Under the pieces are notes generated by a model. That model made no database searches and was not told the DNA's origin. It saw only the letters and a list, made by a program, of their open reading frames with translations. From Candidatus Gottesmanbacteria bacterium (GTDB lineage: Bacteria; Patescibacteriota; Microgenomatia; UBA10105; UBA927), in contig CAVQFA010000003.1 in NCBI GenBank assembly GCA_963711735.1, positions 470,966 through 534,965 of the forward strand: a stretch of 64,000 nt of DNA. Reading direction: 5' to 3'. How positions within the stretch are numbered: the first letter of the stretch is position 1; every line of letters begins with the position of its first letter. Below are positions 1-17,742 of this stretch, in pieces. Made by a program: the position numbers and the translations under genes.

Positions 1-606
1 GGAATTTTTGATACGTCCGATGAGGTGAGAGTGAAGGATAAGGATTTATCCAATGTGGTTTCAGGGGTAAAAACCGCTATATACGACGCAGTCGTGAAAG
101 AAGGGTATTTCCAGAAAAATCCGGAAACAGTGAGGACTCTCTATACCATTCTTGCCGTGTTCGGATTTATGACGGGCAATATGCTACTTGCCATAACCGC
201 ATTTATCTTCGGACGGGCAATGCCGAGAAAAACTCTCCCTGGTGTGGAAGTCTCCAATATCGCTAAGTCACTCAAAAATTTTCTTGTAAGCCAGGAGCAC
301 CGGCTTGCGTATGAGGCGAGAAACCAGATTTTCTTTGAAAAGTTTTTACCGTATGCAGTTGCATTCGGTGTGGAAAAAATATGGGCAGAGAGATTCAAAG
401 ATATTGCGATGACCCAGCCGGGATGGTATGAAGGACAAAATACCCGCATGTTTAACAGTGTTGTTTTTGCATCAGCTCTCAACTCGTCACTGACAAGTTT
501 TTCCCATGCCGCAACACCGACAAGGTCAACATCCGGGTATTCGTCAGGATTTTCCGGGGGATTCTCAGGCGGAGGCGGCGGAGGAGGGGGCGGAGGGAGT
601 TGGTGA
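1..606 (+). CDS. 5'-truncated membrane protein, DUF2207-like C-terminal region with poly-Gly ...GGGGGGGGGGSW tail
   Basis: The ORF is open from base 1 with no upstream stop. It has hydrophobic segments and a C-terminal Gly run ending in SW, typical of DUF2207-family predicted membrane proteins. Confidence 0.5.
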   Translation, partial: GIFDTSDEVRVKDKDLSNVVSGVKTAIYDAVVKEGYFQKNPETVRTLYTILAVFGFMTGNMLLAITAFIFGRAMPRKTLPGVEVSNIAKSLKNFLVSQEHRLAYEARNQIFFEKFLPYAVAFGVEKIWAERFKDIAMTQPGWYEGQNTRMFNSVVFASALNSSLTSFSHAATPTRSTSGYSSGFSGGFSGGGGGGGGGGSW

Positions 607-2044: not shown

Positions 2045-2551
2045 TTAAGGTCCTGTTGCAACACCGCTTACTTTCCATACATCGTTTATTTTTTCGACAG
2101 TGATCCACCGCGTATTTTCTCCTTCATCCCAAAGTATGTTTGCCGTGGGTTTCAGTGACGCATGTAATACAACTTTATAAATTTCCTTCATATCTGTCCA
2201 GGAAGATTGATCATACGCGTCAATTGTAGTTAGGGATAAAGAACTGAATGCATTAAACGTGACACCCCATGCCTGTTTGGAAGTCTCATCAGGTGCAGCG
2301 GTAGGCGATAACATGGAGACAGCCTCCGGTGTGTGTTTTTCATTGATAAGTGCAATAAATACGCGAATGATATCTATTCCGGTCGGAAGAGGTACTCCGT
2401 TATTGGTTTGAATCTCCGGTTGGAGAAACATCCTGAGTAGGAGCGTTATTCTGGGGCAATGCGTGAGTTTCGTTGACCGTGAAGTATATATGGGATATCC
2501 GATAATTCCGATGACAACAATGACGCAAAAACCTATGATATATTTGATCAT
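2045..2551 (-). CDS. hypothetical protein with N-terminal transmembrane anchor
   Basis: 168-aa ORF with an N-terminal hydrophobic helix. No recognisable motif. Confidence 0.4.
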   Translation of the reverse strand: MIKYIIGFCVIVVIGIIGYPIYTSRSTKLTHCPRITLLLRMFLQPEIQTNNGVPLPTGIDIIRVFIALINEKHTPEAVSMLSPTAAPDETSKQAWGVTFNAFSSLSLTTIDAYDQSSWTDMKEIYKVVLHASLKPTANILWDEGENTRWITVEKINDVWKVSGVATGP

Positions 2552-2782
2552 ACTGTTTCTTGTGAATACTCCACCAATATGATATCATACGAATATTCAT
2601 TTACAAGTTTAAAGCAATATATCTGCTTAAAATAATTGGTTCGTCCCGGTGGCGGGATATGAGGTTGCCTCTTTGTTCTATCCGATTTCCCCACACATAC
2701 GATACTTATGTTTTCCCTTTTTAGCAGTTTTATTCCTTTAACATGCAAAAATCTTATACGGAAAGGAGGGGAAATATAAATT

Positions 2783-5220: not shown

Positions 5221-5373
5221 AATTTATCTCGTATTGTACTTTTATAATGATAAATGTCAATGTTTTGGGCGTTAAAACAACGGAATTACACATGTTGGGA
5301 AAATATTAAAACGTTTTTACTTCGATAGTAAACTGGTATAATTGGATTTATTCATTAAATTTATCTCAACAAT

Positions 5374-6027: not shown

Positions 6028-6081
6028 GTATACTTGTTGGGATGGTATTGGAACTTTTTATAGCTTCGTCATGGAGCGAAA

Positions 6082-6546: not shown

Positions 6547-6890
6547 AATGCGTTTTTATCTTGAGGTTCATTAGACTTGGAGTCATTTTTGAGTCTCTCG
6601 TTTTCTAACTCCAGCTGGTGAATTCGTTTGGTCAAATCAACAATATCGCTTTTCCCGTGTTTGATCGCTGAATCCTTCCTGTGCATGGAAAAGGCGGTAA
6701 AAATTGAATTGATAAGATATATACAGTACGCTAATCCCAGTCCCGTTAAAAGAGAACCGATGATGACATAAAAGAGCGGAATACCGGAGAGTACGGATGT
6801 TCCAAGGCGTAAAGTTACCAACATCGAGTTATTTTGTGCCAGATACGCCATGATAGCGCCGATAATTAATAAGAAAATAAGTATAGGCAT
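6543..6890 (-). CDS. small membrane protein, LapA/DUF1049-like (two TM helices plus coiled coil)
   Basis: Two N-terminal hydrophobic helices, then a coiled-coil tail. 4-nt overlap with the NUDIX gene. The ATG at 6890 is the likely start. Confidence 0.5.
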   Translation of the reverse strand: MPILIFLLIIGAIMAYLAQNNSMLVTLRLGTSVLSGIPLFYVIIGSLLTGLGLAYCIYLINSIFTAFSMHRKDSAIKHGKSDIVDLTKRIHQLELENERLKNDSKSNEPQDKNAL

Positions 6891-6971
6891 TTCATATAGT
6901 ATACACACTTATCAAAATATTTTCTCATAAAGTATGTTCCAACATCGTCCCCTCTGGGAGCATATTTAATA

Positions 6972-7040
6972 AATTTCTCAGTACCCCAAATGATTTCTCG
7001 TTGGAACAAGCTTTTAGCCTCAATACGAGCGTGGAAAGGA
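6972..7040 (+). repeat. Short member (copy A) of a tRNA-Glu-3'-end-seeded repeat family: ...tctcaGTACCCCaaatgatttctcGTTGGAACaagcttttagcctcaatacgagcgtgg
   Basis: About 88% identical to 8829-8900. Shares the GTACCCC and GTTGGAAC...agcctcaata words with the long copies at 11.85, 13.2 and 14.27 kb. An inverted GTTCCAAC lies about 50 bp upstream. Confidence 0.6.
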
Positions 7041-7204
7041 ATTTTAGAACCTAATCTTCTCCCAGCCTTGAAGTATGTTTACAAACGAGTATTAGAATTT
7101 TGTATATATTCACGACATTTCATTTATTATTATACATTTATAGTTTGAACTATTTTTCTTCTTCTGATTTATATGCTAATATTAAACTAAATGAAACTAA
7201 AAAT

Positions 7205-11848: not shown

Positions 11849-12050
11849 TGGTACCCCCTGCCGGATTGCCGCGATTACTCGACACTCGCCAGCACTAAAG
11901 CTCGTTGACTCGCTAAGTGCTGGTTGGCGAACCTCCGGTTCTCATCTAATGCAGAGTATTGCATAAAAAAATCGGGCGTAAAACCCGATATTTTTATGCA
12001 GTACACGTGTTGGAACCAAATTGGAACATATTTTAATCTCAACCACTTAG
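11849..12050 (+). repeat. Long divergent family member (R0): tRNA-3'-end-like GTACCCCCTGCCGGATT, imperfect hairpin module, palindromic terminator, tail GTACACGTGTTGGAAC...GGAACATATTTT
   Basis: About 75% identical to 13207-13420 over about 200 bp. Hairpin arms differ but keep their pairing (compensatory changes). The terminator is GCATAAAAAAATCGGGCGTAAAACCCGATATTTTTATGC. Confidence 0.6.
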
Positions 12051-12160
12051 ATTTCAATCCGCATTAATAAGAAATTGGTGAATTTGGTTCATAGTATTAA
12101 TTAGATAAATATCTTATAGTTGTTAATGAAAGTATTCATTGATATAATGCTCCAATTATT

Positions 12161-13198
12161 ATGTCGTATGTACCTGAAACTCTTGTATTAACACTTTCCC
12201 GGCAGTGTAATATTGAATGTAGTCACTGTATCGTCGAAGCAGAACCGAGAATATCAGAAGAACTTGATGTCAATATCATTAATTCTTCGCTTAGGCAAGC
12301 AAAGCAAATTGGCATACGAACTGTTTGCATCTATGGTGGAGAACCGTTTCTCCAGACCAGCGGACTTCTTCCTCACACCATACGCCAAACCTTTGCTGAG
12401 GGATTTCCTTTCGTTTCAATCGGAACAAATGGATTTTGGGGAAGAACAGAAGCACAGGCACAAAAAACACTATCCGAGTTGAAAAAGATAGTTAGCTCTT
12501 ATGACGGTATGATTGGTCTTGGCATGTCAGTAGACCGATTCCACCAACCGAGCGTACCACCACAATCAATTGCAAATATAATTTCAGTTCATAGACGTGG
12601 TAATTTCCCAAATATTCGATTAGGAATTCATACGTTCAAAGATCAACCATCATTTGATATTGTCGGACAGGTATATGATCGTGCGATGCGTAATGATTTG
12701 CATATGATCGAGAGTAATGACGCAGGATATATATATCCTGCGTTGAGAGAAGAGTTTATCGAGTTTTCCAGTGAGAACTTTCCCGTCATTAGACGTAATC
12801 TTGATTTACCTGAGGATGCAGATGAAAAGCATATCTTTGAATCACTTGTATTCAATCTTGATGTTTCACATGCAATGCGCGATGTGATGTTACCAAAAAT
12901 AATCGCACGTCAGATGGATATCGGTAACGGATTCGAAAATTACTTGATCTTTCCCAATCATACATATTTATTAGATTTTATTGTTGAGGAAAAAGTACTG
13001 AATGCCGGAAGGGCAAGGATTTCAGGTAATTTAGAAACTGCCCGCGATATGGACTCAGATACTGACTATTTGGTCATCGCTCCAAATGGTCAAGCATATG
13101 CCTATCCTGCTCATATTACCGCAGAATCAGGAATTATTATCGGAAATAAATCACTAAAACAGGTTGTAAGAGAAGTTGAAAACAAATGGTTCTATTAG
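12161..13198 (+). CDS. radical SAM domain protein (CX3CX2C motif C-N-I-E-C-S-H-C); cargo gene
   Basis: Canonical CxxxCxxC cluster at residues 16-23, followed by a glycine-rich SAM-binding segment (CIYGGEPF). No SPASM/twitch Cys cluster. Confidence 0.7.
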   Translation: MSYVPETLVLTLSRQCNIECSHCIVEAEPRISEELDVNIINSSLRQAKQIGIRTVCIYGGEPFLQTSGLLPHTIRQTFAEGFPFVSIGTNGFWGRTEAQAQKTLSELKKIVSSYDGMIGLGMSVDRFHQPSVPPQSIANIISVHRRGNFPNIRLGIHTFKDQPSFDIVGQVYDRAMRNDLHMIESNDAGYIYPALREEFIEFSSENFPVIRRNLDLPEDADEKHIFESLVFNLDVSHAMRDVMLPKIIARQMDIGNGFENYLIFPNHTYLLDFIVEEKVLNAGRARISGNLETARDMDSDTDYLVIAPNGQAYAYPAHITAESGIIIGNKSLKQVVREVENKWFY

Positions 13199-13206
13199 TT
13201 TAAAAA

Positions 13207-13368
13207 GTACCCCCAGTCGGATTCACTGCAAAGCTACGCTTTGAGTGCTCGCCAGCAGTATGACTCGTAAATATGAATTTACTCGTTAACTGCTGGTTAG
13301 CGAACCTTCGGTTCTCACCGACATGGGCATGAAAAAAGCACCCATTAGGGTGCTTTTTTCATGAGTAC
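13207..13368 (+). repeat. Repeat R1, a 162-bp unit 100% identical to 14266-14427. Its first 18 nt (GTACCCCCAGTCGGATTC) match the 3' end of the tRNA-Glu gene exactly
   Basis: Exact identity read from the sequence. Contains an imperfect hairpin (CGCCAGCAGT...ACTGCTGG) and a perfect 16-bp-stem hairpin CATGAAAAAAGCACCC-atta-GGGTGCTTTTTTCATG. A degenerate tail GTACACCTGTTGGGACGATGTTGGAACATATTT follows to about 13420. Confidence 0.9.
13328..13363. terminator. Perfect 16-bp-stem, 4-nt-loop hairpin with A-tract and T-tract arms (bidirectional intrinsic terminator) inside repeat R1
   Basis: CATGAAAAAAGCACCC ATTA GGGTGCTTTTTTCATG. Confidence 0.7.
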
Positions 13369-13471
13369 ACCTGTTGGGACGATGTTGGAACATATTTAGC
13401 CTCAAATATCTAAGTAATATATTTTTTTACGAGAGTATTATTCGGAAAATCAAATATGTTACACTGAATAT

Positions 13472-14260
13472 ATGAGTGAATCTGACATAAAAGTTAATAT
13501 TCAGCCGTCAGAAATTCAGCCTCAATCCGAACAGCCAAAGGAAGCCCGCGCACCAGTCCCCGGAATGAATAAAATAAAGTCATCTCATCTTCAGATAGCA
13601 TTGATGGCACTTCTTCTTATATCGATCACTACAGCAGGATATCTTGGTTATAAGTATTACGTATTCAATAATACATTAACTGTTACGCCGCCACAGCCTG
13701 AACAACCAGTTAAAACCATACCAACAATTACCCCTATTCTGACACCAGTATTTTCAATATCAGTAAATCCCGCTACAGGTCAGAATTTATATTCAAACAC
13801 AACATATGGGTTTAGTTTTGAATATCCTAAGGATTTTGTTATTGAAAATCAAAACCCCCCTAGTATTGGAGTAATGGGTAACAATATTGTCGGGCTCATC
13901 CGAAGATCTATGTACTTCCTGCCTAACTACCTACAAAATATAAGTAGGTATAATGAATATCGAAATCGGTTCACCAATATAAAAAAGCTAAATGTCGGAG
14001 AGTCGTACACATATGAACCAGTAGATACTTTTTTTGAGACGACAACCAGAATAGCTGATATGAAAATCGGAGGAATAACTTCTTATGTTTTTGATGTTCC
14101 TAAGGTTTGGGAAGGGGAAGGACCGTATAGAGAAATATATTTACCCAAAGGTGATGATTATATACAGATATTTTATACGAATTCTAACGATAAAGAAGAT
14201 CCGATTGATTACGTAAAAGGCTTTAACCAGATTCTATCCACTTTTAAATTTACTTATTGA
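13472..14260 (+). CDS. hypothetical membrane-anchored protein (262 aa), cargo gene flanked by the perfect repeats
   Basis: A hydrophobic helix at about residue 40 and a Pro-rich linker. No motif. Confidence 0.5.
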   Translation: MSESDIKVNIQPSEIQPQSEQPKEARAPVPGMNKIKSSHLQIALMALLLISITTAGYLGYKYYVFNNTLTVTPPQPEQPVKTIPTITPILTPVFSISVNPATGQNLYSNTTYGFSFEYPKDFVIENQNPPSIGVMGNNIVGLIRRSMYFLPNYLQNISRYNEYRNRFTNIKKLNVGESYTYEPVDTFFETTTRIADMKIGGITSYVFDVPKVWEGEGPYREIYLPKGDDYIQIFYTNSNDKEDPIDYVKGFNQILSTFKFTY

Positions 14261-14265
14261 TTTTT

Positions 14266-14427
14266 GTACCCCCAGTCGGATTCACTGCAAAGCTACGCTT
14301 TGAGTGCTCGCCAGCAGTATGACTCGTAAATATGAATTTACTCGTTAACTGCTGGTTAGCGAACCTTCGGTTCTCACCGACATGGGCATGAAAAAAGCAC
14401 CCATTAGGGTGCTTTTTTCATGAGTAC
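14266..14427 (+). repeat. Repeat R2, a 162-bp unit identical to R1 that abuts the tRNA-Glu gene and overlaps its 3' end by 4 nt; it includes the tRNA's terminator
   Basis: 100% identical to 13207-13368. Its terminal GTAC is the start of the genuine tRNA 3' segment. Confidence 0.9.
14388..14423. terminator. Perfect hairpin terminator immediately downstream of tRNA-Glu (minus strand), also able to act on plus-strand transcripts
   Basis: Same sequence as 13328-13363. Confidence 0.7.
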
Positions 14428-14498
14428 CCCCAGTCGGATTCGAACCGACGGTCTACACGTTGAGAACGTGTCGTCCTAGGCCGCTAGACGATGGGGGC
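14425..14498 (-). tRNA. tRNA-Glu, anticodon CUC
   Basis: Reverse complement GCCCCCAUCGUCUAGCGGCCUAGGACGACACGUUCUCAACGUGUAGACCGUCGGUUCGAAUCCGACUGGGGGUA folds as a cloverleaf (GUCU D-stem, ACACG/CGUGU anticodon stem, loop UUCUCAA, T-arm GUCGG-UUCGAAU-CCGAC). Close to E. coli tRNA-Glu. CCA is not encoded, and pair 1-72 is G.U. Confidence 0.85.
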
Positions 14499-15240: not shown

Positions 15241-15426
15241 AATGGATAGTTAGCGGGCAAATTCATATTTGCGGGCTTACTGACCATTTATCCGGCACAT
15301 AGGTGCCGGAAACAATATGTAATAACGTAAGCATATATACACACAGTGGTGTATATAGGAATCAATATTAATACTTTCATGTATAGGAAGTATTGATGGT
15401 GTTAATATACAATATAGGAACTACGT

Positions 15427-17742
15427 ATGTTCTGGGCAGACAGAATTGCAAAAGAAATCATTGGCAGCGGACTCTATCGTCCTTTTTGGGCGGATGATAT
15501 GTTCACCCCCTCAGGTTATGCACACATTGGTTCATTGCGTGGTCCCTTAGTCCATGACGTTATCTACCGTGCAATAACCGATGCAGGACAAAAAGCAGTG
15601 TCGACGTATGTTTTCAACGACTTTGATCCTGTGGACGGATTACCGTCTGAGCTTATGCATCTGTCCGATGAGCTTGGCAAACCGCTCCGCCTGGCGAAAT
15701 CTCCTGACGGCGGATACGCGAACTTCGCAGCGTACTTTGCACATGATTTTCAGACAGTGCTTCGGTCGCTCGGAGTCGGAGCGGAATTTCTCTCCAGCTG
15801 GGATATGTATCACGAAGGGAAATTTGACGGTGTTATCCGTACTGCCTTGGATCATGCACCCCTCATCCAGGACATCTATCAGCGTGTGAGCGGGAGCAAA
15901 AAACGCGAAAAAGGATGGCTTCCTCTTCAGGTTATCTGCGAGAAATGCGGGAAACTCGGAACAACGAGGGTGCATGATTGGGACGGGACGTTTGTTACAT
16001 ACACATGTGAAGAATCCATGGTTTCATGGGCAAAAGGATGTGGGTTTACCGGGAAAACCAGTCCGTTTACGGACCCGGATGATCCGAAACATCATCCCGG
16101 CAAGCTGCCGTGGAAAGTAGACTGGCCGGCACACTGGAGGGTCCTTGGCGTGACGATTGAAGGAGCAGGTAAAGACCATTCATCCGCGGGAGGTTCCCGG
16201 GATATCGCGAAGGTTCAGTGCAAAGAAGTCTTTGAAATACCGGAACCGTACAATCTGCCATACGAATTCTTTCTCATTGGAGGCAGGAAAATGTCCTCTT
16301 CTAAGGGGATCGGTCTCAAAGCTCGGGAGCTAACGGAAATCCTTCCGCCTCAATTAGGCAGATTTCTTTTCGTCCGCACGGATTACCACCAGGCAATAGA
16401 ATTTGATCCGGTCGGTACAACGGCAATTCCTGATTTGTTTGATGAGTACGACCGGTGTTTCACGGCATATGTAAACGGAGGCGATGAAAATCTGTCCCGT
16501 GCATTTGTATTATCACAAATCGGTAAAGTCCCGGAGAAATCTCCGGTTTTCATCCCGAGATTTCGCGACATTACCAATGTGCTTCAAACCCCTCACGCAG
16601 ATGCGGGTAAAATATTTACACAAAAAGCCGGACGGGTACTTACCGGACAGGAAGAAGAGATACTCAGGGAACGTATCTCATATGCACGTCTTTGGCTTTC
16701 TAAATTTGCACCTGAGGAAATGCTCACATCAATGACGAAAGAAATTCCCGATGATGTGAGAACTTTATCAGGGACACAGAGAGATTTTCTTACCCGTGTT
16801 GCCGATATGGTGAAGGATGCACAAAATCCTGAGAAACTACAGGAAGATTTATATGCACTCACGAAGGAAATGAAGATGAGCACAAAGGATGCTTTTTCTT
16901 CACTTTATATAGCGCTTATCGGGAGGAAGTACGGTCCCAAAGCAGCATGGTTTCTCCTCCAATATCCCAAAGATACCGTTGTGACACGCTTACGTGATGC
17001 AGCGAAACACCGGGAAGAAAAAGTTAAGCACGCTCCGGAGGATTTTGAAGTGATTGTTAAACCCGAATTTTTTACGATAGATCCTGCAGTGACGAAGTCG
17101 TACCCTACCGTTTCAATCGGAATTGCATTCATATCAAATGTCCACATAACTCTCAAAAATAATGAGCTGGAAAAGGAAAAAGCAAAAACTGTGGAACAAA
17201 TCCGCACCAATACTCTTGAAGAACTGGGAAGCTCTCCGGAGATAGTAAGCTACAGGAAGCTCTATAAACAAATGGGTATCGATTGGCATTCCCGGAGACC
17301 CTCTCCCGAGGCGCTTGTGCGGAGAATCATACAGGGCAAAGGACTCTATGAGGTAAACACGTGTGTGGATGCATATAATCTGTCAGTGGTGAAAAATCTG
17401 GTTTCCGTCGGTGCATTTGATGCGGACTCTATAAAGTTTCCGACCGTCTTGCGGTTTGCCAAAAGCGGTGATGAGATTCTTCTCCACGGCGACACCAAAC
17501 CGACAGCGTATACATCCGAAGAGCTGGCATACTATGATAAGTCCGGAGGATACAACATTGATTTTAACTACCGTGATGCCAAACGTACGCTCGTCACGGT
17601 TCATACGAAGAATATCTGGATAAACGTTGACGGTATATATGACATTTCAAAAGAGGCAGTATGGCATACGCTTCTCTCTGCTATAACGGGAATTATGAAA
17701 TACTGCGGCGGCACGCTTGAGTGGAAAGGGTTAGTGACATAA
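15427..17742 (+). CDS. lysK: class I lysyl-tRNA synthetase (archaeal-type LysRS) fused to a C-terminal B3/4 domain
   Basis: HIGH-type motif (YAHIGS) and KMSKS-type motif (KMSSSKG). The C-terminal roughly 210 aa (nt about 17100-17742) match the B3/4 domain (PSPEALVRRIIQG...VNTCVDAYNLSVV...GAFDADSI). Confidence 0.8.
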   Translation: MFWADRIAKEIIGSGLYRPFWADDMFTPSGYAHIGSLRGPLVHDVIYRAITDAGQKAVSTYVFNDFDPVDGLPSELMHLSDELGKPLRLAKSPDGGYANFAAYFAHDFQTVLRSLGVGAEFLSSWDMYHEGKFDGVIRTALDHAPLIQDIYQRVSGSKKREKGWLPLQVICEKCGKLGTTRVHDWDGTFVTYTCEESMVSWAKGCGFTGKTSPFTDPDDPKHHPGKLPWKVDWPAHWRVLGVTIEGAGKDHSSAGGSRDIAKVQCKEVFEIPEPYNLPYEFFLIGGRKMSSSKGIGLKARELTEILPPQLGRFLFVRTDYHQAIEFDPVGTTAIPDLFDEYDRCFTAYVNGGDENLSRAFVLSQIGKVPEKSPVFIPRFRDITNVLQTPHADAGKIFTQKAGRVLTGQEEEILRERISYARLWLSKFAPEEMLTSMTKEIPDDVRTLSGTQRDFLTRVADMVKDAQNPEKLQEDLYALTKEMKMSTKDAFSSLYIALIGRKYGPKAAWFLLQYPKDTVVTRLRDAAKHREEKVKHAPEDFEVIVKPEFFTIDPAVTKSYPTVSIGIAFISNVHITLKNNELEKEKAKTVEQIRTNTLEELGSSPEIVSYRKLYKQMGIDWHSRRPSPEALVRRIIQGKGLYEVNTCVDAYNLSVVKNLVSVGAFDADSIKFPTVLRFAKSGDEILLHGDTKPTAYTSEELAYYDKSGGYNIDFNYRDAKRTLVTVHTKNIWINVDGIYDISKEAVWHTLLSAITGIMKYCGGTLEWKGLVT

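Follow-up and report, generated by a model that had tools for sequence, protein, structure and literature searches.

A conserved structured repeat module adjoining tRNA-Glu genes in Gottesmanbacteria and other Patescibacteria

A 64-kb stretch of Candidatus Gottesmanbacteria DNA (the window) carries a repeated module between single genes that lead up to a tRNA-Glu gene. This locus raises the question of whether the module is a conserved structured element or a neutral remnant and, if it is conserved, whether it works as RNA or as DNA. The genomes of candidate-phyla-radiation bacteria are tiny, and the ways in which these bacteria acquire and trade accessory genes are poorly understood. The locus is a hypervariable island on tRNA-Glu, in which one-gene cassettes are parted by a conserved, structured and tRNA-derived module.

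Module copies beside tRNA-Glu in the window

The window holds three copies of the module, R0, R1, and R2 (Table 1). In the tRNA direction, each copy runs from a bidirectional terminator through three hairpins (H1, H2, and H3) to O, a copy of the tRNA's 3′-terminal 18 nt. The preliminary description, made from the sequence alone, had reported a head, a long imperfect hairpin, palindromic terminators, and a tail; all are present, and the identity of R0 to R1, given as about 75%, was measured at about 71–77%. It had missed a third copy, R2, which abuts the tRNA gene and is 100% identical to R1 across 158 nt, and a third hairpin, H3, between the head and H2. The head (GTACCCCCAGTCGGATTC at 13207 and 14266, GTACCCCCTGCCGGATTG at 11851) had been called tRNA-end-like. 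This is correct as far as it goes; the head matches, in reverse complement, the final 18 nt of the neighboring tRNA-Glu(CTC), an identity that had not been seen and that is the key to the genomic context. The 18-mer of the tRNA end has four matches in the window (0.05 expected by chance), and O of R0 differs from the tRNA end at three positions.

Table 1 Features of the repeat array in the 64-kb window. O, the module's copy of the tRNA 3′ end.
Feature	Position	Strand	Description
Module R0 (diverged copy)	11851–12004	-	Model match 99 bits, E 4.5e-21; alignment; O match
R0 O	11851–11868	-
R0 H3	11867–11884	-
R0 H2	11889–11923	-	Stem CCAGCACT/AGTGCTGG
R0 H1	11929–11941	-
R0 terminator	11956–12004	-	Palindrome, stem ATCGGG/CCCGAT
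R0 tail	12001–12043	+	GTACACG TGTTGGAAC CAAA TTGGAAC ATATTTTAATCTCAACC
Cassette gene 1	12161–13198	+	345-aa radical-SAM-like protein, between R0 and R1; Pfam Radical_SAM 5.4e-7
Module R1	13207–13364	-
R1 O	13207–13224	-
R1 H3	13224–13247	-
R1 H2	13252–13296	-	Outer stem CCAGCAGT/ACTGCTGG
R1 H1	13302–13314	-
R1 terminator	13328–13363	-	Palindrome, stem GCACCC/GGGTGC
R1 tail	13365–13405	+	GTACACC TGTTGGGAC GA TGTTGGAAC ATATTTAGCCTCAA
Cassette gene 2	13472–14260	+	262-aa protein, between R1 and R2; ORF list
Module R2	14266–14423	-	Directly 3′ of tRNA-Glu(CTC); model match 89 bits, E 1e-18
R2 O	14266–14283	-
R2 H3	14283–14306	-
R2 H2	14311–14355	-
R2 H1	14361–14373	-
R2 terminator	14387–14422	-
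tRNA-Glu(CTC) gene	14424–14498	-	Array anchor; ARAGORN; Rfam tRNA 60.8 bits
Solo H2 relic	15248–15281	+	Inverted orientation; far side of tRNA and greA

Each of the two cassette genes points towards the tRNA and stops 6–9 nt ahead of a module. Cassette gene 1 has its own promoter-like site at 12120–12148 in a promoter scan, and the product of cassette gene 2 gave only a sub-threshold Pfam match. No homologues of either gene were found among 80 related loci. Beyond the tRNA are greA and lysS; greA has homologues in the related loci, and nothing to the left of the window's tRNA does. Exact-protein look-ups of the radical-SAM and GreA proteins gave matches on short Logan contigs only. The tails share the consensus GTACAC(C/G)TGTTGG(G/A)AC...TTGGAACATATTT (12001–12033 and 13365–13397) and lie upstream of the radical-SAM gene (R0 tail) and of the 262-aa gene (R1 tail). 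The R1 tail, which carries two 9-nt direct repeats, occupies the place that the tRNA body takes beside R2, and relatives of it are present at three other loci (L083, L087, and L081).

The terminators of R1 and R2 are perfect A6-stem-loop-stem-T6 palindromes. A terminator scan called that of R0 on both strands (11971–11989) and missed the other two, probably because the A and T tracts lengthen the stem. As in bidirectional intrinsic terminators, the G+C-rich stem of all three is preceded by an A tract and followed by a T tract, and each can stop transcription both from the tRNA and from the converging cassette; here, the terminator makes up just one part of the module. The preliminary description had taken the completely changed terminator stems as evidence for preserved structure. 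This argument does not hold because differing stems between preserved A and T tracts are the normal picture for independent intrinsic terminators, and the differing stems are uninformative on the structured part.

Compensatory changes in two of the three hairpins

Since R0 and R1/R2 are only two distinct sequences, compensatory change in the hairpins, which had been claimed for them, cannot be judged from the window alone. Further copies were located by a metagenome pattern scan and at LysRS-linked loci in Gottesmanbacteria-like and other Patescibacteria. A covariance model built from the copies themselves matched 28 copies with E < 1e-10 in 21 sequences (the window and 20 loci), and this model can be used at once for mapping the family.

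We compared the 25 distinct copies from these 21 sequences with 500 shuffles and with slid controls. In H2 and H3 together, 93.3% of cells were paired (77.6% in shuffles), 12 of the 18 pairs had changed on both sides (7.2 in shuffles), 28 further pair types occurred (19.2 in shuffles), and the covariation score was 0.416 (0.142 in shuffles). On all five measures, every one of the 500 shuffles fell short of the observed value. The slid controls were 29–51% paired. A structure-independent MAFFT alignment gave the same result, with 92–93% paired cells against 76–78% and 11–12 of 18 pairs changed on both sides across the analyses. Compensatory change in H2 and H3 is thus real and well supported, whereas H1 showed no covariation. 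The covariation of H2 and H3 in the 25 distinct copies supports the preliminary description in its view of the module as a conserved structured element, as opposed to a neutral remnant; its claim of compensatory change stands for these two hairpins and not for H1.

T-stem-like pairing around H2–H3 was found in 83.8% of cells against 76.7% in shuffles, with one of the 500 shuffles as high. A closing stem between the 5′ flank and the tRNA-end copy was not consistently supported; the energies of cognate and non-cognate duplexes were mixed, with means of −9.6 and −8.2 kcal/mol, respectively. The architecture is one of three helices or a four-way junction. For R1, both strands give a four-way junction (z −5.4 and −6.8), and R0 as a whole folds poorly (z −1.1 and −1.8).

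The copies could also be inert scars, that is, old att sites, pseudo-tRNA fragments, and terminators, with hairpins kept by descent and by terminator convergence. Degenerate tRNA-end fragments and nested remnants are indeed common at the related loci, H1 does not covary, the R0 fold is weak, and the terminator differences are trivial. Against this, the pairing of H2 and H3 survives many double-sided changes, and no shuffle exceeded the two measures least sensitive to relatedness, namely the number of pairs with double changes and that of further pair types. In addition, pairing drops in the slid controls, and about 30 positions are invariant among copies whose host LysRS proteins share only about 60% identity. 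The inert-scar reading is already disfavored by these results, and we regard it as improbable.

tRNA origin, distribution, and exchange of cargo

In four loci (L084, L085, L094, and L096), the 5′ part of the module is TCAAGGCATAAATCGCCGGTTCG, which corresponds to the anticodon-loop-to-T-loop part of tRNA-Glu. When a real tRNA (L003) is aligned to the model, H2 and H3 come out as deletions, and the H2–H3 insert of about 85 nt falls exactly between GGTTCG and AATCC of the T loop, with tRNA-Glu homology on both sides. As judged from these alignments, the module descends from the 3′ part of tRNA-Glu and carries H2–H3 in the T loop. No cloverleaf was recognized in the modules; ARAGORN and the Rfam tRNA model called only the tRNA-Glu(CTC) gene itself.

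The position of the insert also bears on a reading in which H2–H3 is a miniature IS200/IS605-type element whose two hairpins are subterminal and whose insertion into the T loop, 3′ of TTCG, left no target duplication, or a TnpB-type guide RNA scaffold with the tRNA-Glu end as its guide. The two hairpins are followed by 17–18 nt matching a nearby target, and at another locus (L006) the identical T-loop position is occupied by a different small hairpin. However, no tnpA or tnpB gene was seen in the neighborhoods scanned or in 1.5 Mb of related loci, and the insert was not found outside the pseudo-tRNA context in this 1.5 Mb, rearranged relics excepted. The hairpin pattern, with the tRNA flank or in a looser form without it, had no match in 2.9 million viral contigs. 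Moreover, the hairpins of known IS200/IS605 ends are probably less close to the junctions than those of the module, which counts against this reading. We consider such an element highly improbable, marginally more so than inert scars.

Nearly all copies sit just 3′ of a tRNA gene, after a terminator. The adjoining tRNA is Glu-CTC or Glu-TTC, with Cys and Arg once each. The terminal 17–18 nt of the module follow the local tRNA, though that sequence varies among genomes (GACTGGGGG, GGCTGGGGG, GGCACGGGG, CGCGTGGGGG, and CTCCCATACGCGG, for example), and the direct repeat of the tRNA 3′ end is also found at L001, L004, L010, L013, L018, L067, and L075. Near-identical terminator–module units stand behind different isoacceptors in different genomes (Glu-CTC in L004 and Glu-TTC in L089). 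A strict 25-nt pattern gave no match in genome representatives or in viral contigs, and our literature search found no relevant description of an equivalent in Patescibacteria.

Arrays like that of the window occur at L081, L085, L087, L093, and L097, often with different accessory genes between copies; the cargo at other loci also consists of accessory genes. In L081, L086, L093, and L097, differing cargo lies between the same module kinds. The junctions read tRNA|term_a-A-O|X...C-O|Z in L097, tRNA|term_a-A-O|Y in L086, and tRNA|term_b-B-O|Y-tail|term_a-C-O|Z in L081. Modules and cargo combine independently at '...GGGGTAC|' in these three loci, and cargo segments (a gene plus its tail) lie exactly where a tRNA-end copy meets the next terminator. 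The L081 tail leads into the same terminator as that found after the tRNA in L097. Beyond the distal tRNA-end copy come TCA and a terminator in L001, and TCACAAAA and a terminator-like stretch in L004, as expected of a displaced original tRNA end.

In the window, no recombinase was found by Pfam among the larger ORFs of 1–19.6 kb, by tblastn with tyrosine and serine recombinases of Patescibacteria across the whole window, or by a motif scan. In L081 and L086, a truncated large serine recombinase gene extends into the tRNA-end copy of the module. Its relatives are intact in L098/L099 and L105 and present as a 302-aa fragment in L104, and with the same geometry these recombinase genes extend across the 3′-terminal 40 nt of tRNA-Asn or tRNA-Lys genes. 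A fragment also lies just 3′ of tRNA-Glu in L009. No partial tRNA-Asn copy was found on the far side of the L098 recombinase. Neither an excised circle nor an empty site with the same flanks was found; the module-less loci L003 and L008 have unrelated flanks.

Recombination site or RNA gene

Among the candidates of the preliminary description (a small RNA, an attC-like site, and a protein-binding site), the one in best agreement with the genomic context is a recombination site, either folded or bound by protein. We put at about an even chance the interpretation that the module is the conserved body of an integrase-less unit of ca. 140–160 bp tied to site-specific insertion at tRNA-Glu 3′ ends in Microgenomates. 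The order tRNA, terminator, module, tRNA end would be the product of integration at the T loop or the 3′ end. Such a unit would contribute a terminator, then a pseudo-T-arm of tRNA-Glu with H2 and H3 in the T loop, and then a tRNA copy from the T loop to the last base. The incoming DNA would rebuild the tRNA 3′ end and supply a terminator, and the old 3′ end would be shifted outward. A unit of this kind would be, or would have been, mobile. Counting against this reading are the negative recombinase searches of the window, the failure to find an excised circle or an empty site with matching flanks, and the absence of the module from the 2.9 million viral contigs. Alternating insertions of modules and cargo could then have given the order tRNA, R2, 262-aa gene with tail, R1, radical-SAM gene with tail, R0, in which R0 would be the oldest unit and R1 and R2 two copies of one recent unit. 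The arrays fit separate insertions of module and cargo and composite module–cargo units at the tRNA end equally well. The exact duplication of R1 and R2 could alternatively come from homologous recombination with a module-bearing circle.

The recombinase would act in trans, and the candidates are the large serine recombinases that abut tRNA 3′ ends in related genomes. A pair made up of HTH_17 and a tyrosine integrase, in L102 and L104, is a further candidate. H2 and H3 may be the recognition target of the recombination machinery, as a folded strand or a cruciform, and would work as DNA and not as RNA. To our knowledge, ordinary attP arms have no covarying hairpins, so the reason given here for the structure is one that we infer.

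Several known systems share features with this locus. As in tRNA-targeting integrative elements, the array lies between an intact tRNA gene and a directly repeated copy of that gene's 3′ end, and the content at the same tRNA differs between related genomes; these elements, however, encode an integrase, and none was found in the window. In the Patescibacterial large serine recombinase elements of the P0022 and P0003 family, the recombinase gene runs toward the tRNA gene and overlaps its 3′ end, the same geometry as that seen against the module's tRNA-end copy in L081 and L086. In contrast, their tRNA loci have no module, and the window has no such recombinase. The tycheposon islands of Prochlorococcus are tRNA-anchored islands built by successive site-specific integrations (bioRxiv 10.1101/2020.12.28.424599). 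Such tRNA islands have in common with the present arrays an intact tRNA at one end, partial tRNA 3′ copies between inserts, newer inserts that displace older ones outward, accessory cargo, and scattered degenerate integrases, to which the truncated serine recombinase of L081 and L086 corresponds. They differ in unit size, being here ca. 160 bp or one gene with no integrase, and their descriptions hold no conserved covarying three-hairpin module at each partial tRNA copy. ICE/CIME accretion in streptococci is a second example of successive integration anchored on a tRNA.

The arrays also resemble those of integrons, which share mostly one-gene cassettes, a repeat variable in sequence and conserved in fold, and a recombinase outside the cassettes. 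Consistent with attC sites, a structured repeat of 100–150 nt is found at the 3′ side of each one-gene cassette, and none of the cassettes contains a recombinase. However, neither strand of R0, R1, or R2 has an RYYYAAC (R″) or GTTRRRY (R′) core, the module forms three helices instead of a single bulged hairpin and ends, unlike attC, in a tRNA 3′ end copy, and the anchor is a tRNA gene followed by greA and lysS, not intI and attI. The attC candidate of the preliminary description fails on these core motifs and on an IntI gene, which was not seen, and true integron sites are extremely improbable here.

In the RNA reading, the module encodes a small structured RNA on a tRNA-Glu scaffold, consisting of a T arm and acceptor end with H2–H3 grafted into the T loop. 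Read-through followed by tRNA-type processing could yield such an RNA in the tRNA direction; on the cassette strand, it could be a 3′-UTR element with its end at the terminator. The association with insertion junctions would then be of secondary origin, as when the RNA gene is carried by inserted units or duplicated with the tRNA end. Covarying helices, conserved unpaired bases, and an invariant tandem G-A/G-A between covarying pairs are typical of functional RNAs, and T-stem-like pairing is retained around the insert. The order of module and terminator on the cassette strand suits a terminated RNA or a 3′ UTR, as does the short distance from both cassette genes to the module. In the tRNA sense, G-U pairs are in mild excess over A-C (20 against 11 overall, 16 against 4 in H3), and H2 folds better in 16 of the 25 copies. 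This strand preference is nevertheless weak, a slight lean in pair counts and fold energies. In the tRNA sense, the module follows directly after a strong terminator, which leaves no room for a promoter, and none is conserved; the promoter scan gave only two good sites, one for the radical-SAM gene and another directed at the R0 tail and terminator. On the other strand, what lies upstream differs from copy to copy, and the orientation of the neighboring gene varies. The acceptor-like closing stem is not consistently supported, and a gene alone does not account for arrays with exchanged cargo.

Rfam, which the preliminary description had named as a check, matched no described RNA family for the module. 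Release 15 at the gathering score gave only tRNA, and permissive scans of the window region, L004, and L081 gave sub-threshold matches, nearly all from the terminator hairpin or tRNA. The small-RNA candidate has no Rfam match, conserved promoter, or clear strand preference; overall, we think the RNA reading unlikely, though well ahead of inert scars and IS200/IS605-type elements. tmRNA and the bacterial Y-RNA-like YrlA are tRNA-like RNAs with a grafted domain, and, as in the module, an acceptor/T-arm-like end is joined to an extra structured domain. The module differs from both in that it has no Rfam match to either and its 5′ acceptor strand is not consistently present. A hammerhead-like reading of CUGGUGAG and its stem was rejected because the core bases differ by eye and the Rfam ribozyme models were silent.

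We tentatively consider, while leaning against it, the wider proposal of a new kind of folded recombination site, or of a small recombination-guiding RNA on a tRNA scaffold. The module would then define an integron-like cassette system of candidate-phyla-radiation bacteria, with a tRNA-Glu 3′ landing site, a recombinase in trans, cassettes of one to few genes, and a T-arm loop expanded into two covarying hairpins. As a recombination site, the module would offer a sequence handle for cassette arrays and their cargo in Patescibacteria metagenomes and a defined recombinase substrate; as an RNA, it would represent an undescribed tRNA-scaffolded family. The solo H2 relic beyond greA forms an inverted repeat with both H2 copies at 85% identity, and the model matched it with 13.4 bits (E 0.042).

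Module family and tRNA origin

The window belongs to a patescibacterial genome (candidate phyla radiation) close to Candidatus Gottesmanbacteria. The repeat seen in R0 and R1 in the preliminary description was confirmed and extended, by a third module in the window, R2, and by a wider family. Its "tRNA-end-like head" is the reverse complement of the final 18 nt of tRNA-Glu(CTC), which begin in the 3′ half of the T loop and extend through the base that follows the discriminator. Four instances of this end lie in the window, against 0.05 expected by chance: one within the tRNA and the others at 14266, 13207, and 11851 (the last with three mismatches). In the tRNA direction, each unit opens with a bidirectional terminator in the form of a perfect A-tract/stem/T-tract palindrome; after it come the hairpins H1, H2 (the long one), and H3, and then the tRNA-end copy (O). 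The tails of R0 and R1 (GTACAC...), each with two 9-nt direct repeats (TGTTGGGAC..TGTTGGAAC), stand where the tRNA body stands after R2. The R0 tail and terminator are also faced by a good sigma-70-like site (TTGAAA-16-TAAAAT), which, were it active, would give a transcript of only ~40–50 nt.

Features in the window and in related loci (L numbers)
Feature	Sequence	Position	Strand	Remark
tRNA-Glu(CTC) gene	window	14424-14498	minus	
R2	window	14266-14423		abuts tRNA-Glu(CTC); 100% identical to R1 over 158 nt
R1	window	13207-13364		
R0	window	11851-12004		about 71-77% identity to R1/R2
Radical-SAM-like protein gene	window	12161-13198		between R0 and R1; reads towards tRNA
262-aa protein gene	window	13472-14260		between R1 and R2; reads towards tRNA
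Class I lysyl-tRNA synthetase (lysS)	window	15427-17742		at most 64% identity to Gottesmanbacteria MAG proteins
Sigma-70-like site	window	12030-12057	minus	
Distant tail motif	window	6031-6056	plus	
Distant tail motif	window	6933-6960		inverted
Distant tail motif	window	6982-7030	plus	
Distant tail motif	window	5293-5312	plus	weak
H2 solo relic	window	15248-15281	plus	inverted; 85% identical to R1 H2
CCGGCAC...GTGCCGG hairpin	window	~15292-15310		
Large serine recombinase family	L098	7001-8596		
Large serine recombinase family	L099			
Large serine recombinase family	L105	4001-5459		
Large serine recombinase family	L104	4001-4943		
Large serine recombinase family	L102	5218-8557		
Split tRNA-Glu	L096	~100-430		
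Split tRNA-Glu	L085	~2316-2715		
Split tRNA-Cys	L082	~6700-7050		
Pseudo-tRNA-Glu 3′ part	L006	8966-9046	minus	
tRNA-Glu 3′-end duplication	L018	6885-7088		
tRNA-Glu 3′-end duplication	L067	7734-7827		
tRNA-Glu 3′-end duplication	L075	8999-9233		
9.3-kb island	L013	16-9314		

Homologous modules were found by Blast and then by a pattern scan of metagenome contigs, and 19 of these served to build a covariance model, which detected 28 strong copies (E < 1e-10) across the window and 20 further sequences. An Rfam search, proposed in the preliminary description, returned no matching family, the module was not found in the papers searched, and 2.9 million viral contigs contained no copy. Nearly all copies lie 3′ of a tRNA gene and a terminator, with Cys and Arg tRNAs in one case each and Glu-CTC or Glu-TTC in the others. 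The terminal 17–18 nt of the module match the local tRNA 3′ end, though that end varies between genomes. Closely related terminator-plus-module units lie behind the Glu-CTC gene of L004 and the Glu-TTC gene of L089, which have the same 3′ end. Multi-copy arrays with intervening genes, like that of the window, were found in L081, L085, L087, L093, and L097; L087 is a relative's tRNA-Glu/greA locus (GreA 79% identical) with at least five module copies and different cargo.

The module is a 3′ part of tRNA-Glu carrying an insert. Its 5′ part in L084, L085, L094, and L096 (TCAAGGCATAAATCGCCGGTTCG) corresponds to the anticodon loop, variable loop, and T stem of tRNA-Glu, and where the covariance model aligns a genuine tRNA (L003), H2 and H3 appear as a plain deletion. 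Two conserved stretches, GGTTCGC ahead of H2 and AATCC behind H3, are the halves of a T loop; thus, H2-H3 (~85 nt) is placed exactly between TTCG and AATCC. Directly downstream of the real tRNA-Glu of L006, a pseudo-tRNA-Glu 3′ part has a different ~30-nt hairpin insert at the same T-loop position (GTTCG TTTACTCCGAAAGCGAAGGTATTGGGAGA ATCCGAC). In L096, L085, and L082, an older tRNA gene is split in the anticodon loop by an insert of ~190 bp with a complete new tRNA of the same kind, and the displaced 3′ half is the one bearing H2-H3 in the T loop; the insert flanks are conserved in L085 and L096 (CCGCCTGYCRAAGCCAT...).

Covariation in the module hairpins

Among 25 distinct sequences, H2 and H3 together had standard pairs in 93.3% of cells (77.6% after shuffling), changes on both sides in 12 of 18 pairs (7.2), 28 further pair types (19.2), and a covariation score of 0.416 (0.142); for each measure, none of 500 shuffles was as high. 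Sliding the partners by 1–3 columns reduced pairing to 29–51%, and a MAFFT alignment made without fitting to the structure agreed (92.1% paired vs 75.9%). The three middle pairs of the H2 outer stem read CAG/CTG, GAG/CTC, CGC/GCG, or CAC/GTG among copies, and the H3 stem variants include TGCCGCG/CGCGGCA, TGCAGCG/CGCTGCA, TGTCGTT/AACGACA, and TGGCC/GGCCA. Within H2, two invariant G-A dinucleotides face each other with covarying pairs around them, which looks like a tandem G-A motif. The structures of H2 and H3 are under selection, as the preliminary description had proposed for the whole element; for H1, covariation support was absent. The differing terminator stems of R0 and R1, cited there as evidence for structure, are of the kind seen among independent terminators and add nothing to the case.

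A five-pair T-stem-like helix around H2-H3 had modest support (83.8% vs 76.7% shuffled; 1 of 500 as high), and the closing stem between the 5′ flank and O was convincing only in some copies, R1 and R2 included. In the tRNA sense, G-U exceeded A-C (20 vs 11 overall; 16 vs 4 in H3), but fold energies differed little between the strands, and there is no clear preference for either one. The main rival to the reading as an integrative module, a small RNA on a tRNA scaffold, is possible but less likely; it lacks a promoter, and in the tRNA sense the module lies behind a strong terminator. The T-loop position would also suit a miniature IS200/IS605-type element or a guide-RNA scaffold; no such genes came up in the neighbourhoods scanned, and in 1.5 Mb of related sequence the insert did not occur in another context apart from rearranged relics. 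With structured repeats separating one-gene cassettes, the array readily invites comparison with integron attC sites, which the preliminary description had listed as a candidate. That identity is very unlikely: the modules lack attC core motifs and differ from attC sites in architecture and anchor.

Proposed build-up of the array and candidate recombinases

The arrays show the pattern left by repeated site-specific integration into a tRNA 3′ region, known from tRNA-anchored islands, for instance those of tycheposons (bioRxiv 10.1101/2020.12.28.424599). The locus would belong with the tRNA-anchored integrative islands, a known kind. The best reading, to which we give an even chance, is that the module is a cis-acting, tRNA-derived part of integrase-less integrative units that build a tRNA-Glu cassette island.

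Four metagenome contigs were compared, with A, B, and C as module variants and X, Y, and Z as cargo or flank. The layouts were tRNA / term_a-A-O / X...C-O / Z in L097, tRNA / term_a-A-O / Y in L086, and tRNA / term_b-B-O / Y-tail / term_a-C-O / Z in L081, indicating that modules and cargo assort independently at the ends of the tRNA-end copies. L081 has a cargo-plus-tail segment fitted exactly between two elements, a tRNA end and the terminator found behind the tRNA in L097. After the outermost tRNA-end copy, L001 has TCA and a terminator, and L004 has TCACAAAA and a terminator-like stretch; both would fit an original tRNA end that has been pushed outward.

The window order would result if module units and cargo-plus-tail segments had been inserted in turn, with R0 as the oldest unit and R1 and R2 as two copies of one recent unit. 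Insertion of composite module-plus-cargo units at the tRNA end would fit equally well, and the exact R1–R2 duplication could also come from homologous recombination with a module-carrying circle.

No recombinase was found in the window by Pfam on the larger ORFs of 1–19.6 kb, by motif scan, or by tblastn over the whole window with patescibacterial tyrosine and serine recombinases. L081 and L086 carry a truncated large serine recombinase that extends into the tRNA-end copy of the module. Its relatives are common in Patescibacteria, and those in L098, L099, L104, and L105 overlap, with the 3′ end of the gene and on the opposite strand, the 3′ 40 nt of tRNA-Asn/tRNA-Lys genes, a convergent geometry as in L081 and L086. 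L009 has a fragment shortly downstream of its tRNA-Glu; in L102 and L104, the recombinase gene comes after genes for an HTH_17 protein and a tyrosine integrase; and many database members are C-terminal fragments of ~300 aa. These enzymes are no more than candidates for a trans-acting enzyme.

Left of the window tRNA, neither the cassette genes nor those beyond them have a homologue in the related loci; greA, across the tRNA, is conserved in them. By this comparison, the left region is a variable island. Further tail motifs (GTAYAC..TGTTGGGA..TTGGAAC; one then TTTAGCCTCAA) occur between genes at a distance from the modules; the island probably reaches leftwards to at least ~5.3 kb, with tails as the more general boundary. 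Between the greA terminator and lysS lies an H2 relic, followed by a hairpin resembling a tRNA-end copy; this would fit either an earlier inversion or a module beyond the tRNA that has decayed.

In L018, L067, and L075 (Daviesbacteria-like and other loci), the tRNA-Glu 3′ end is duplicated 77–160 nt downstream of the tRNA with intervening sequence unrelated to the module; such duplications may represent further families of this sort. The L013 island, between tRNA-Glu and a copy of its final 17 nt, has neither integrase nor module, and its cargo includes Fic, pyridine-nucleotide-disulphide oxidoreductase, fused G6PD-6PGD, RpiB, MerC-like, redoxin, DsbD, and DUF3179 genes.
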